Assembly: GCA_964358095.1 (NCBI GenBank)
Contig: CAYHNW010000001.1
Location: 71,108-135,107 of the forward strand
Direction of reading: 5' to 3'
DNA length: 64,000 bases
Source: an uncultured Candidatus Peribacteria bacterium
GTDB taxonomy: Bacteria; Patescibacteriota; Gracilibacteria; UBA1369; UM-FILTER-53-11
The notes beneath the pieces are model-generated. The model searched no databases. It was given only the letters and a program-made list of their open reading frames with translations, and was not told where the DNA came from. The position numbers and the translations under genes are program-made. Each line of letters starts with the position of its first letter. Within the stretch, counting starts at the first letter, position 1. Shown here in pieces: positions 3,324-37,670 of the stretch.

Positions 3324-4685
3324 GTGCAAAATGTAAGCTTTATTGCAGCCAAAGCGCGAGAAGTTTCCGCTCGTTTTGGTATGTTTTCTACAGATGCCAA
3401 GAATGAAATTTTGTTAAAAATCGCAGAAAGATTAAAAGAAGATACTGCCCGAATTCTAAAAGCCAATGCAAAAGACGTTGCAGTCGGTAAGCGAAAAGGC
3501 CTTTCAGAAGGCTTGCTTGACCGCCTGCTACTCACGAAAGAACGTATGGAGGGAATAATCGCAGATGTACGTAACATTGCAGGTCTAAAAGATTACGTTG
3601 GGAGTGTGATAGAAGAGCGTGAACTCCCAAACGGATTATTTTTGCGTCGTCTTCGCGTGCCACTTGGAGTTGTTGCCATGATTTACGAAGCTCGCCCAAA
3701 TGTGACCGTTGATGCCGCATGCCTTTGCCTAAAAAGCGGTAATGCCGTAATTTTAAAAGGCGGATCAGATGCCATAAATTCAAACCGAGCGATAGTTTCG
3801 TCCATTCAAAGCGTATTAAAAGAAACCAGTTTTTTGGAGCCGACTTCTCGCCTTCAAGATTTGGTGCAACTGGTAGACAGCACCGATTACGCAGTCACAA
3901 AAGAGTTATTAAGTTTAAATAATTTTATTGACGTTGTGATTCCGCGCGGCAGCATGAAGTTAATAAACTTTGTCCGTGAAAATTCGCGAATTCCGGTGAT
4001 AGAAACGGGCGCGTCGGTGGTGCACGCATACATTCACGAAGATGCCGACGTTGCACAAGCCGTACAGATAATTATGAATGCAAAATTGCGCCGTGTTTCT
4101 ATTTGCAACACGCTGGATACGCTCTTGGTACACAAAAAAATCGCGCCGGTTTTACTGAAAGCTCTCGTTGAAGCGCTGCCAAAAAATCAGTATAAAGCAG
4201 ATCACCTGGAGCTGCGTGCCGACGCAGAAAGTTTTGGAATTTTGCGCAAACTTTCGAAGCCAAAAGAAATTGCAGCCAAGCCACCTCACCTATCGGCAGG
4301 CGGGCGGCTCGGCCTGTTCGAATTAAATTTTAAAAAATCCACACCGCAAGATTATTCCACGGAATTTTTGGATTATATTTTGGCAATTAAGACCGTGCGC
4401 TCGCTTGACGAGGCGTTAAATCATATTTCCCACCACAGCCTGCGCCATTCAGAGGCGATTGTTACCGCAGATGAGCGCGTAGCACAGCGTTTTCTGCAAA
4501 GTGTGGACGCGGCTTGCGTTTACTGGAACGCCTCAACGCAGTTTTCAGATGGCGGACAATTTGGACTCGGCGCAGAGATTGGAATATCCACTCAAAAGCT
4601 GCACGCGCGCGGCCCATTTGCGCTGGAAGGCCTAACAAGCTATAAGTGGGTAATAGAAGGCAACGGACAAATTAGGACACCATAA
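3324..4685 (+). CDS. proA: gamma-glutamyl phosphate reductase
   Basis: Aldehyde-dehydrogenase-type ProA motifs (VIYEARPNVT, GNAVILKGG, CN..DTLLVH, ASTQF.DGG.FG). The listed ORF start 3246 overlaps murA. In-frame GTG at 3324 (or 3285) is a more plausible start; the start is uncertain. Confidence 0.88.
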   Translation: MQNVSFIAAKAREVSARFGMFSTDAKNEILLKIAERLKEDTARILKANAKDVAVGKRKGLSEGLLDRLLLTKERMEGIIADVRNIAGLKDYVGSVIEERELPNGLFLRRLRVPLGVVAMIYEARPNVTVDAACLCLKSGNAVILKGGSDAINSNRAIVSSIQSVLKETSFLEPTSRLQDLVQLVDSTDYAVTKELLSLNNFIDVVIPRGSMKLINFVRENSRIPVIETGASVVHAYIHEDADVAQAVQIIMNAKLRRVSICNTLDTLLVHKKIAPVLLKALVEALPKNQYKADHLELRADAESFGILRKLSKPKEIAAKPPHLSAGGRLGLFELNFKKSTPQDYSTEFLDYILAIKTVRSLDEALNHISHHSLRHSEAIVTADERVAQRFLQSVDAACVYWNASTQFSDGGQFGLGAEIGISTQKLHARGPFALEGLTSYKWVIEGNGQIRTP

Positions 4686-34707: not shown

Positions 34708-35048
34708 TTTACAGTGGCAAGGGATTACAAAAGACCGCCCTCGCCTCTCAAAACAAAAACAAAGCTTGGTGTCCTTTATTCTTCTCATTGACGGCCTAGC
34801 CGCTCAAAAATAAAAACACAATAAACAGGCCGCCGTTATGGTTCGGCGGAAATAAAACCCAAGTAAGGCAGATTCGCTCGTCGAACCAGAAAGGATTGGT
34901 CTCCTTTCTCTCCATTAATTTCTGGGAAAAATCACCCTCTGGTGTCTTTCAATTTTTTATACTTTGAACATCTGATAGGGTTACCCGGGAAAGCGTGGAT
35001 GCTCTGGGCCTCAATTAATCTTTGGGGCCCATAAAAAAGTCCCTCGTT

Positions 35049-35081
35049 AACCGGACATACGTGCGGTTGGGGGATTTTTTT
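35049..35081 (+). terminator. terminator-like hairpin plus T7 run inside the murI upstream region
   Basis: AACCG-gacatacgtg-CGGTT GGGGGA TTTTTTT. It implies that a plus-strand transcript ends here. Confidence 0.4.
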
Positions 35082-35089
35082 ATGTGGCT

Positions 35090-35196
35090 GCGGCTGGGGT
35101 GTGTCTGCTTCGGTCACTGGAAGTCGGCCTGCCTCATACATGATTCGGCAGGCACTCCTTCTGGAAACGTTTCCTGCGCAGACACACCCCAGCCGC
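35090..35196. repeat. 107-bp element bounded by perfect 19-bp inverted repeats (structured RNA or MITE-like)
   Basis: GCGGCTGGGGTGTGTCTGC (35090-35108) and GCAGACACACCCCAGCCGC (35178-35196). The interior has GCCTGCC-N13-GGCAGGC and GGAAACGTTTCC hairpins. G+C-rich compared with its surroundings. Confidence 0.5.
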
Positions 35197-35258
35197 GCCC
35201 CAATCTAGGCTTACTAAAAGGCCTGTATTTCAGGTTAATTCACGTGTATAACGTTGGC

Positions 35259-36140
35259 ATGATCGGTATATTTGACTCGGGCTATGGCGGCCTTACAATA
35301 ATGCGCGAGATCGTCAAGACGTTGCCGCAGTATGATTATCTTTACCTCGGCGATAACGCGCGCGCTCCTTATGGAAACCACAGCAAGGAGACGGTGACGA
35401 AGTTTTCGGAAGAAGCCGTGAGATTTTTGTTTGATAAGGGATGCAATTTGATAATTTTTGCGTGTTTCACGGCGAGTTCGCTTGCACTGCGTGAATTGCA
35501 GGAAAAGTATTTGCGGAATCCCTGCCTGCCGGCAGGCGAGGCAAAATCTAAATTTAAAGACAGAAAAATTCTGGGGGTGATTCGGCCGATTGCGGAGCAG
35601 GCGGTGCGCGAGACTATGACCGGACGCATTGGCGTTACTGGCACGCGTGCGACGGTTAATTCGCACACTTTTGATGTGGAGCTGGAAAAAGAATGGAAAC
35701 TCGCGTCAGGGCATAAAAAAGGCATTAAACTGGATTTGACTAGCCAGGCTTGCCCGCTGCTCGTGCCGCTGATTGAGGAACACTGGCACACGAAGCCTGA
35801 GGCGCGCATGATTTTGAAAAAATATTTGAGGCCTGTGAAAAATCACAACGTGGATACGCTGATTTTGGGATGCACACATTATCCGCTGATGCTGCGGGAT
35901 TTCGTGTCGTTTATGGGTAGCCGCGTGAAGGTGCTGAATTCGGGAGAGATTGTGGCGCGCAGCCTTGCCGACTATTTAACTAGACATCCGGAAATTGAGA
36001 AAAAGTTGAGCCGTGGCGGCGCACGAAAATTCATGACCACCGATGATCCGGCGAAGTTTAAACAATTCGTGGAGGAGTTTGGCGGAATGAAGGCGGGAGA
36101 TGTGGAGGGGGCGGAGGTTGGAAAGATTACAAGCCGCTAG
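35259..36140 (+). CDS. murI: glutamate racemase
   Basis: MIGIFDSGYGGLT..., ACFTAS and LGCTHYP catalytic Cys motifs. The listed ORF start 35022 is a non-homologous extension over the hairpin element. Confidence 0.92.
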   Translation: MIGIFDSGYGGLTIMREIVKTLPQYDYLYLGDNARAPYGNHSKETVTKFSEEAVRFLFDKGCNLIIFACFTASSLALRELQEKYLRNPCLPAGEAKSKFKDRKILGVIRPIAEQAVRETMTGRIGVTGTRATVNSHTFDVELEKEWKLASGHKKGIKLDLTSQACPLLVPLIEEHWHTKPEARMILKKYLRPVKNHNVDTLILGCTHYPLMLRDFVSFMGSRVKVLNSGEIVARSLADYLTRHPEIEKKLSRGGARKFMTTDDPAKFKQFVEEFGGMKAGDVEGAEVGKITSR

Positions 36141-36283: not shown

Positions 36284-36318
36284 CTCACTCCCACTCAATC
36301 GTCCCTGGCGGTTTGTTT
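36284..36318. repeat. direct repeat DR1 (orphan copy of the guaA 3' end; att-like)
   Basis: 35/35 identity with 37636-37670. Confidence 0.9.
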
Positions 36319-36380
36319 TGTATTGCCGGGAATCCCGGTAGTTTGACATTTAATGCTAATTCCCGGTATACTTAACCTGT

Positions 36381-37340
36381 ATGAAGATACATATCCCAAA
36401 CAGCGTGTGGTTAGGGAATATAGACCCGTTCCTTAAAGGATTTAAACCAGCAAATCCTGATCAATTAAAAATAACATTCAATAAGAAATGGCTATCTATA
36501 CATCCAATGGTGCTGACGATGATTGCCGCTTTAGGCATAAAAACAAATCCCTCAAATATCGAGTGTGAAAAACTCGAAGCAAGATCTAAACATTACTTAG
36601 AGAGGATGAGATTATTTGATTTTCTGCATGTAACGTCGGGCATTACGATGAAAAAACATGAACTCGCGGGCAGATCTGTACCGTTGACTCAAATTAAAAA
36701 CTCGACGGAATTAACGGAATTCATCACAGAAGTAACGCCTTTACTTCACCTTGAGCCAAAACACGCTGAACCCATACGCTACATAATGAGCGAATTGATA
36801 AGAAATGTACTTGAGCACTCCATGTCAAAACACGGAGCTATTGTATCCGCCCAATACTACAAAAAAAGTAATACTATTCGCATTGGGATTGCTGACACAG
36901 GTATCGGCATATGGAAATCAATAAACCAATCTTACAACCCAAAGACTGATTTGGAGGCAATCCGTTTAGCATTAACTCCTGGCATTACCGGAACAACAAG
37001 GCAAGAAGGCGGGACGGATCGCAATGCGGGTGCAGGCTTGTTTTTCATAAAATCAATAGCTTCTGTAAATAGTGATTTTTTCGTTATCTATAGCGGAAAA
37101 GCAATGTATAAACTCTTAAAAAGAAAAGGTAAAAAAATAAAATTGCATGTTGACCCTTTTGAAGACAGACATTCTAAAAAAGGTGATCTGCCAAGCTGGG
37201 AAGGTACTGTTGTCGGTATCGATCTTTCATTGGATACTACACAAGAATTTTCCCTGCTCTTAAAACTGCTAAACGAAACTTTGAACGAAGCCATAAAAGA
37301 AAGGAAAAAAGCTCGTTATAAAAAACCGCAATTCACATGA
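36381..37340 (+). CDS. GHKL-superfamily (HATPase_c, RsbW/SpoIIAB-like) ATP-binding protein with an uncharacterised N-terminal domain of about 120 aa
   Basis: N-box SELIRNVLEHS, G1 IADTGIGI, G2 GAGLFF. No His-kinase H-box/DHp domain. TATACT -10 box lies 8 nt before the ATG. Confidence 0.7.
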   Translation: MKIHIPNSVWLGNIDPFLKGFKPANPDQLKITFNKKWLSIHPMVLTMIAALGIKTNPSNIECEKLEARSKHYLERMRLFDFLHVTSGITMKKHELAGRSVPLTQIKNSTELTEFITEVTPLLHLEPKHAEPIRYIMSELIRNVLEHSMSKHGAIVSAQYYKKSNTIRIGIADTGIGIWKSINQSYNPKTDLEAIRLALTPGITGTTRQEGGTDRNAGAGLFFIKSIASVNSDFFVIYSGKAMYKLLKRKGKKIKLHVDPFEDRHSKKGDLPSWEGTVVGIDLSLDTTQEFSLLLKLLNETLNEAIKERKKARYKKPQFT

Positions 37341-37627
37341 TTCACATAAAATTATTCAAACAGGTTGGCGTATTCGCTGAAAATAAAGACATTGCCGCAG
37401 ATATCAGATTAAACAAATTGCTTCCAGCCCTAGAGAAAAATCAAGATATCATATTGGACTTTGAAAAAATCGAAGGAGCCACTCAATCTTTTATACACGC
37501 CCTTATCAGCGATTTAATGAGAAAATACGGGAATGAAGTGTTAGATAAAATTCAATTTAAATCGTGCAACGCCACAGTGAAAGGAATCATTTCCATCGTA
37601 GTAGATTATATGCAAGAAAGTGATTAG
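37337..37627 (+). CDS. STAS-like (DUF4325-type) small protein, putative partner of the GHKL ATPase
   Basis: 96 aa. IILDFEKIEGATQSFIHALISDL matches the 'LDF..V....SF..ElF' signature as I recall it for DUF4325/STAS-like domains. ATGA 4-nt overlap with the upstream gene. Confidence 0.6.
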   Translation: MIHIKLFKQVGVFAENKDIAADIRLNKLLPALEKNQDIILDFEKIEGATQSFIHALISDLMRKYGNEVLDKIQFKSCNATVKGIISIVVDYMQESD

Positions 37628-37635
37628 GAACCCTG

Positions 37636-37670
37636 CTCACTCCCACTCAATCGTCCCTGGCGGTTTGTTT
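37636..37670. repeat. direct repeat DR2 (functional 3' end of guaA)
   Basis: Encodes ...NKPPGTIEWE-stop on the reverse strand. Confidence 0.9.

Follow-up and report, generated by a model that had tools for sequence, protein, structure and literature searches.

The window analysed here, a stretch of 64,000 nucleotides (nt) from an uncultured Candidatus Peribacteria bacterium (GenBank assembly GCA_964358095.1, contig CAYHNW010000001.1, positions 71,108 to 135,107 of the forward strand), contains a pair of overlapping genes that encode a GHKL-family protein (gene 1, protein K) and a small STAS-like protein (gene 2, protein S). The pair is, very probably, a stand-alone member of the class of kinase-substrate switches formed by CapK or VapK with CapS or VapS, and within this class it is an effector-less variant. 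An earlier note on this DNA had regarded the function of such a pairing as uncharacterised, a statement overtaken by the description in 2026 of CapK/CapS and VapK/VapS/VapC (Chambers et al., EMBO J 2026; PMC13373217). In the first of these systems, CapK (helix-turn-helix (HTH)-STAS-GHKL) is switched on by single-stranded DNA (ssDNA) and phosphorylates Ser54 of the repressor CapS (STAS-winged helix-turn-helix (wHTH)), and the two control a downstream operon (CBASS, Bub, Thoeris, and other immune operons). In the second, VapK (STAS-GHKL) is proposed to phosphorylate VapS at Ser48, the phosphomimetic substitution S48E frees VapS from the PIN toxin VapC, and VapKSC confers protection against phage Bas42 (PMC13373217). 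A group of PIN proteins coupled to DUF4325 genes was previously reported by Matelska et al. (2017).

Both open reading frames (ORFs) and their ATGA start/stop overlap (37337-37340) lie exactly where they had been placed before, and the description of the pair as a GHKL ATPase or kinase of the RsbW/SpoIIAB type, translationally coupled to a DUF4325 STAS-like protein, is upheld. Profile hidden Markov models accept the GHKL assignment of gene 1, with 27.4 bits for PF13581 (HATPase_c_2), which is exactly the gathering score, and 23.9 bits for PF02518 (HATPase_c), slightly under it; the best NCBIfam match, a weak one, is the anti-sigma F factor. All motifs quoted for gene 1 were found (ELIRNVLEH at residues 138-146, DTGIGI at 172-177, GAGLFF at 217-222, and HYLERMRLFDFL at 71-82), and the kinase signature residues (E138, N142, H146, D172xGxG176, PGxTG, and N215xGxGLFF) are kept in relatives down to 28% identity. 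In a Foldseek search with the AlphaFold2 model of K (predicted local distance difference test score, pLDDT, 78; predicted template modelling score, pTM, 0.83), the target with the best template modelling (TM) score was SpoIIAB (1tid_A, TM 0.72, probability 1.0), and the lowest E-value was obtained for topoisomerase VI-B.

The N-terminal part of K, previously described as an uncharacterised domain of about 120 amino acids (aa), is by its alignments with VapK and with gp32 of Gordonia phage Phishy a degenerate STAS domain such as VapK and CapK also have. The comparison of the K family profile with VapK by hhalign (probability 98%, E-value 1.5e-13, K 19-252 with VapK 35-272) spans both the STAS and the GHKL domains; the 302-aa VapK sequence was taken from the AlphaFold3 model file in the supplement of PMC13373217. 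By BLASTP, K residues 40-210 align with Phishy gp32, and residues 40-105 fall on its Pfam STAS region. Direct profile searches with the N-terminal domain alone gave no significant match to PDB sequences or to the DUF4325 profile; in the AlphaFold2 model this domain consists of alternating strands and helices. As read from the alignments, YLERMRLFDFL corresponds to the STAS helix-3 motif, and the conserved His41-Pro42 occupies the phospho-serine position of canonical STAS proteins. At the other end of the protein, the model has a helix at residues 290-313, and VapK ends approximately 23 residues before the C-terminus of K. The product on record for gene 1 (P0021, 277 aa) starts at Met43 and leaves out positions 36381-36506 of the window; this call is probably too short, since the first 42 residues are conserved in all relatives.

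The assignment of gene 2 is also accepted by its model (PF14213, DUF4325; 52 bits against a cut-off of 23), and the motif quoted for it, ILDFEKIEGATQSF, was found at residues 39-52. The AlphaFold2 model of S (pLDDT 95) is a single STAS domain that matches known STAS domains with a probability of up to 0.99. The best match of the S family profile among PDB sequences is VapS (9z7o_A, E-value 0.0056), and PF14213 in turn recognises a VapS fragment with 53.8 bits. The TQSF motif (residues 49-52) is invariant among all full-length S proteins checked; helix alpha-2 begins at residue 50 of the model and is capped by Thr49. VapS Ser48 aligns with Gln50 of S, which is flanked by Thr49 and Ser51. The alignment with VapS stops at S residue 90, corresponding to chain position 107 (native residue 89). 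The C-terminal helix that VapS needs to inhibit VapC (residues 94-116; PMC13373217) is missing in S, which ends at residue 96, and Pfam found no HTH or wHTH in this single-domain protein. Searches with the VapS fragment returned no matches from a large protein database and, among plasmids, nothing but one fragmentary DUF4325 gene, from Leptotrichia.

Relatives of gene 1 number in the thousands. The best 120 of them are all approximately 319 aa long, share 73-91% identity, and are labelled as Peregrinibacteria, Gracilibacteria, Parcubacteria, Pacebacteria, WOR-1, and one metagenome-assembled genome (MAG) of "Nitrospirae". Species-representative genomes add copies from Nanoarchaeota, Woesearchaeota, and Pacearchaeota at 56-71% identity, as well as copies from Omnitrophota, Elusimicrobia, and one gammaproteobacterium; bacterial and archaeal copies are 57% identical. 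We collected approximately 104 loci, a few of which are duplicates of the same population genome. K is intact in all of them (104/104, 317-327 aa), S follows K at every locus where the contig continues, the ATGA overlap is retained in 90 of 104 loci, and the basic C-terminal tail motif of K is present in 87. One locus (L037; GCA_038078575.1, JBBTYB010000145.1) comes from the same genome as the window, and its gene 1 is split into two ORFs (147 and 171 aa) by a run of N, an artefact of assembly and no sign of a pseudogene. The insertion sites vary by genome (e.g., TPR gene/ftsK, ftsH/hypothetical gene, rpmF/tpiA, and murI/guaA).

Very strong constraint, not recent transfer, accounts for the high identity between phyla. 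Compared with the closest copies (approximately 90% amino-acid identity), both genes have a proportion of synonymous differences (pS) of 0.66-0.84 and a nonsynonymous-to-synonymous rate ratio (dN/dS) of 0.03-0.04; since synonymous sites are saturated, recent horizontal transfer is ruled out as the cause of the 73-91% identity between phyla. The GC content of the pair tracks that of its flanks (r = 0.88, range 0.30-0.62, 66 loci) and is lower than theirs in 61 of the 66 loci, by 4.4 points on average.

Two explanations derived from better-known systems can be weighed on this evidence. Classical partner switching with a sigma factor (as in RsbW/RsbV and SpoIIAB/SpoIIAA), or a decaying VapKSC remnant without its toxin, would agree with the closeness of the K fold to SpoIIAB, with the weak match to the anti-sigma F factor, and with an architecture equal to VapKSC minus VapC. 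However, neither a sigma factor nor a PP2C phosphatase gene was found among the six genes nearest to the pair (two DUF881 genes, murI, guaA, an MscS-type channel gene, and class I lysS), so the absence of a neighbouring sigma factor, pointed out earlier, holds. Moreover, the pair occurs in archaea (MAGs of Nanoarchaeota and Woesearchaeota), which, to our knowledge, have no sigma factors, and decay is excluded by the intact K at every locus together with the dN/dS of approximately 0.03. Both variants of this explanation are close to refuted.

A further family-wide feature is a palindrome of 13-15 nt, (A)CCGGGAWTCCCGG(T), at the promoter of gene 1, directly 5' of the -35 hexamer. A second site, complete or half, follows 28 nt downstream and overlaps the -10 hexamer. 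Sites were called with at most 3 mismatches within 140 nt upstream of gene 1. Of the 104 loci, 98 have at least one site, the background density being 0.24 per kb; 42 loci have two sites, and in 31 of these 42 the spacing is 28 nt. The sole exact copy of CCGGGAWTCCCGG in the window is operator site 1 (Table 1), exact copies elsewhere occur only upstream of gene 1, and the palindrome was never found downstream of gene 2 in the window or in the other loci. That a family-specific palindrome tracks the gene 1 promoter from locus to locus argues that it is a candidate operator read by a product of the module, so that the pair would regulate itself. Because the start codon of gene 1 follows the -10 hexamer after 9 nt, the leader would be very short or absent.

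The TTGACA hexamer is conserved in bacterial loci, whereas archaeal loci have TTTATAAA instead. In four loci from MAGs of DPANN archaea (L029-L032) the bacterial-type palindrome TACCGGGATTCCCGGT is kept, while a TTTATAAA TATA box takes the place of both promoter hexamers (-35 and -10), so that conservation of the operator extends over the bacterial-to-archaeal change of promoter type. A phage copy of the pair on an IMG/VR contig, located between head and tail genes and 48% identical, carries an inverted repeat of another sequence, ATACCCGTAGG / CCTACGGGTAT (L034:5940-5995), around its -35 hexamer, and this phage operator may have changed together with the proteins. The basic C-terminal tail of K was considered as the operator reader and is an unlikely one: it cannot set operator specificity, since it is unchanged in the phage copy with the different operator.

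The position of the operator also bears on the possibility that the pair acts in the manner of CapK/CapS, which control a downstream operon, as a transcriptional regulator of the adjacent gene or genes. At two loci the gene directly downstream on the same strand is lexA, at 82 nt (L017:5332-5952), or recA, at 64 nt (L024:5320-6414). This adjacency is notable given the activation of CapK by ssDNA from DNA damage, yet it could be due to chance. The genes downstream of the pair vary at every locus, the next gene in the window, guaA, is convergent to it, S has no wHTH, and the palindrome is confined to the upstream side of gene 1. A role in regulating neighbours is therefore highly improbable.

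Taken with its operator, the switch class suggests the following scheme. By analogy with CapK and VapK, a cue, possibly ssDNA from damage or infection, would switch K on, and activated K would phosphorylate S at Thr49 (or Ser51). K, S, or their complex would repress their own promoter at the palindromes. The remaining steps are speculative: unphosphorylated S might keep K (or a K-operator complex) inactive, activated K might consume S by phosphorylation, and the freed K might be the effector, acting via its ATPase/kinase activity or its basic C-terminal tail. The target of S would be internal to the pair or universal, because neither a toxin, a wHTH, a VapS-type tail, a phosphatase gene within the repeat-bounded insert, nor a conserved neighbour accompanies the pair, which is shared by bacteria and archaea. 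With its output included, the whole mechanism would be that of a minimal toxin-antitoxin-like conflict or addiction module, which is our tentative preference.

The main rival to this output assigns to K and S the roles of sensor and switch only, with unphosphorylated S controlling a protein encoded elsewhere, as SiaC, RsbV, and VapS do. We consider it the less likely of the two, while giving it real weight. The S protein of every characterised relative acts on a third component (DNA through the wHTH of CapS, VapC in the case of VapS), the fusion to DrmA described below suggests that K-S can serve as the front-end of an effector, and strong purifying selection suits a protein with several interaction surfaces. 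On the other hand, no conserved third gene or neighbour was found in the approximately 104 loci (29 of them scanned with Pfam), a lineage-specific partner is unlikely for a pair that bacteria and archaea share at 57% identity, S lacks the tail needed by VapS for VapC inhibition, and the window contains no second copy of K or S.

Several points weigh against a conflict module in which K itself is the effector, and some of them also against a close parallel with VapKSC. Phosphorylation of S, the trigger, operator binding, and toxicity are all steps that we infer, and we know of no SpoIIAB-type kinase that is a toxin. Pfam found no recognisable DNA-binding domain in K or S, and the phage copy has the same basic tail despite its different operator. 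Conservation as extreme as this (dN/dS approximately 0.03; 57% identity of archaeal to bacterial copies) is atypical of defence or toxin-antitoxin genes, whose sequences normally diverge. The genomic surroundings place the subfamily outside defence islands: the 139 neighbouring proteins of 29 loci that were examined with Pfam and PADLOC are mostly housekeeping proteins. The suggested defence-island context was accordingly not supported, as PADLOC matches among these neighbours are few and scattered (AbiE, SoFic, and PDC-S01, at one locus each), and several represent broadly distributed protein types (radical SAM/pVip, SMC-like/LmuB, and AAA/IetA). In S, the alignment of Gln50 with VapS Ser48 means that the phospho-acceptor would be shifted by one position. 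Finally, the aromatic residue on which ssDNA stacks in the STAS domain (CapK W68, VapK F54; PMC13373217) is not conserved in register in K: VapK F54 aligns with Ser39, the conserved Trp37 is two columns off, and P42 of K aligns with VapK P57. Among the distant relatives in the alignment, roughly half have W, Y, or F at the position of Trp37.

Table 1. Features of the K-S locus and its borders (positions in the window)
Feature	Position	Strand	Remarks
Left 35-nt direct repeat copy	36284..36318	.	Orphan duplicate of the guaA 3' end
Operator site 1, palindrome GCCGGGAATCCCGGT	36325..36339	+	Directly 5' of the -35 hexamer
Promoter-like site TTGACA-18-TATACT	36343..36372	+	11/12 consensus matches
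Operator site 2, half-site AATTCCCGGT	36358..36367	+	Overlaps the -10 hexamer, 28 nt after site 1
Gene 1 (K)	36381..37340	+	ORF of 319 aa
K residues 1-106, degenerate STAS-like domain (predicted)	36381..36698	+	VapK profile alignment; Phishy gp32 BLASTP
K residues 107-285, GHKL (Bergerat-fold) kinase/ATPase, SpoIIAB/RsbW type	36699..37235	+	Pfam, Foldseek, motifs
K residues 286-319 and stop, family-specific C-terminal helix with basic tail KERKKARYKKPQFT	37236..37340	+	
Gene 2 (S)	37337..37627	+	ORF of 96 aa; single DUF4325 STAS-like domain
Thr49-Gln50-Ser51 codons of S	37481..37489	+	Predicted phospho-acceptor site, N-cap/first turn of helix alpha-2
Right 35-nt direct repeat copy	37636..37670	.	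Genuine guaA 3' end (last codons and stop)
guaA	37637..39433	minus	Product with GATase and GMP_synt_C domains

The view of the pair as a self-contained module on an inserted segment is confirmed by its borders, as K and S are the sole content between two 35-nt direct repeats. The repeat copies match at 35 of 35 positions and are 1352 nt apart; shuffled flanks reach at most 11 nt. The perfect match suggests that the insertion event in this genome is not ancient. The segment had also been called compositionally foreign. Its GC content is indeed low (0.377 between the repeats and 0.438 in the whole window), the minimum among all windows of 1317 nt, but as a sign of recent arrival this was rejected: 61 of 66 loci show this offset, which makes low GC a trait of the family.

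Direct repeats derived from the target flank the pair in 14 of the approximately 99 loci with both flanks, i.e., in the window and in 13 others (L012, L001, L048, L056, L060, L065, L073, L076, L083, L094, L102, L109, and L115). The perfect repeat cores are 14-56 nt long, and shuffled flanks give 10-15 nt. The repeats are sharp in the window, L012, L001, L073, and L048; others extend imperfectly over 60 to more than 150 nt, with mismatches at approximately every third base in two loci. Several of the repeats overlap the 3' end of the adjoining gene. On its left side the inserted DNA has no fixed end: the boundary varies from 7 to approximately 200 nt upstream of the operator. A modal repeat length of 26 nt was considered and rejected, as a contig end truncates one case and others extend imperfectly past 26 nt. 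At L076 the long "repeat" (2200-2450 and 3930-4250) encodes, in our own reading of its translation, a tyrosine recombinase's C-terminal motif (…HLVMAGIDLNTVRDLLGHKTLTMTLRY), and the pair sits between two copies of an integrase gene segment; this repeat may not be a target duplication.

These scars raise the possibility that the pair drives its own movement, as a 1.3-kb mobile unit inserted by the GHKL ATPase K with the help of host factors. Flanking direct repeats whose length runs from 14 to more than 150 nt, with no recombinase inside, the variation of insertion sites between genomes, and the fact that some GHKL proteins act on DNA (topoisomerase VI-B gave the lowest Foldseek E-value) are all compatible with it. 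Yet neither a nuclease or recombinase fold nor fixed ends were found, and between the repeats there is no transposase, integrase, or recombinase gene, only K and S. An empty site was not found either: the exact 51-nt pattern of the uninterrupted murI-guaA junction is absent from the metagenome collection, and the sole other contig with the same guaA product belongs to the same genome as the window. Nor was there any sign of circular or tandem forms, since the ends of short contigs do not overlap. Saturated synonymous sites and a GC content that follows the host further imply that movement is rare, and we regard self-driven movement as very improbable.

Apart from the genes already named, dnaB is also located nearby in the window, as identified by reading its translation; all of these nearest genes are of the housekeeping kind. 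A perfect 19-nt inverted repeat (35090-35108 / 35178-35196, arms 69 nt apart) is located upstream of the probable murI start, within a long TTG-started ORF (35022..36140).

Relatives of the pair are connected with genetic conflict, as had been supposed, through the PADLOC model of DrmA, through cargo slots in prophages, and through the phage protection by VapKSC (PMC13373217). K matches positions 75-249 and S positions 326-389 of the DrmA model PDLC02567, in the same order and within its N-terminal part, which points to a K-S module fused into some DISARM helicases. In three IMG/VR phages, two-gene K-S pairs separate head genes from tail genes, and in prophages of Streptococcus agalactiae they follow the lysin gene. 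Gordonia phage Phishy has a STAS-GHKL gene and a small downstream gene, the latter with no Pfam match, between its tail genes and integrase. A K-S pair is also present on an Alicyclobacillus plasmid, and a Francisella prophage contains a DUF4325 gene beside a repressor and an integrase. A paper on a Vibrio Shedu-GHKL system proved unrelated to the pair.

Phage-borne copies of this type could alternatively be counter-defence or decoy cargo, used by mobile elements against host alarm circuits of the CapKS or VapKSC type or to soak up the ssDNA signal. The cargo positions of the two-gene pairs in phage genomes would agree with such a function, as would the missing effector, which suits a modulator. 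Nevertheless, most copies are chromosomal and lie among housekeeping genes of Candidate Phyla Radiation (CPR) bacteria and DPANN archaea, the window shows no cognate host systems, and the pair's own operator, combined with strict conservation, indicates an autonomous function. We therefore judge this explanation improbable.

Returning to the stand-alone conflict module, its strongest form combines three claims: that the two proteins suffice as a conflict system, common to CPR bacteria, DPANN archaea, and phages, in which K is both sensor and effector, that K (or K-S) reads the operator without a known DNA-binding fold, and that the 1.3-kb unit spreads without a recombinase of its own while duplicating 14 to more than 150 nt of target. 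In this full form the proposal is doubtful. So far (2026), the CapK/VapK switch is known only as the front-end of an immune operon or a PIN toxin; here the same two proteins form a self-sufficient unit with matching operators in minimal-genome bacteria, archaea, and prophages and on a plasmid. If the two proteins alone yield an output, the pair would be the smallest form of this signalling logic and would point to a new effector or a new mode of DNA binding; failing that, there should be a conserved partner whose gene lies elsewhere. In both cases the pair offers a handle on stress and infection sensing in CPR and DPANN organisms, which are hard to culture.

Among the known systems closest to the pair is VapKSC of Escherichia sp. 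E4736. K and VapK are homologous across the STAS as well as the GHKL domain and comparable in length (319 and 302 aa). S and VapS are both members of PF14213, each with a conserved Ser/Thr where helix alpha-2 begins, and in both cases K precedes S in one operon. The pair differs from VapKSC by having no VapC PIN nuclease or other third gene, by an S without the inhibitory C-terminal helix of VapS, by a K with approximately 23 extra C-terminal residues that form a helix and a basic tail, and by a Gln at the position of VapS Ser48, between an invariant Thr and an invariant Ser. It also has a conserved palindromic operator, and its hosts are CPR bacteria, DPANN archaea, and others. With CapK/CapS it shares a GHKL kinase with a STAS domain, a gene for a STAS-domain substrate directly after it, and palindromes that overlap the promoter and imply autoregulation. 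Unlike CapK/CapS, it has neither the N-terminal HTH of CapK nor the wHTH of CapS, no immune operon follows it, and its operator is CCGGGAWTCCCGG instead of TTAA half-sites.

The resemblance to SpoIIAB/SpoIIAA and RsbW/RsbV consists of the kinase fold (TM 0.72 to 1tid_A), the ExxxNxxxH N-box, and a STAS substrate, whereas the lack of a sigma factor or PP2C phosphatase among the nearest genes, the extra N-terminal STAS domain of K, and the occurrence in archaea set the pair apart; its gene order is, in addition, the reverse of spoIIAA-spoIIAB. The DISARM DrmA variants with an N-terminal K-S fusion contain both components in the same order (PDLC02567), but the pair has no helicase part and consists of two separate stand-alone proteins. 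Type II toxin-antitoxin systems differ from it in possessing a known toxin fold and a DNA-binding antitoxin, neither of which it has, and in a far weaker conservation. The pair is nonetheless like them in its overlapping two-gene operon, strong promoter, and palindromic operators, as well as in its sporadic distribution, its lone insertion among housekeeping genes, and its presence in phages and plasmids.

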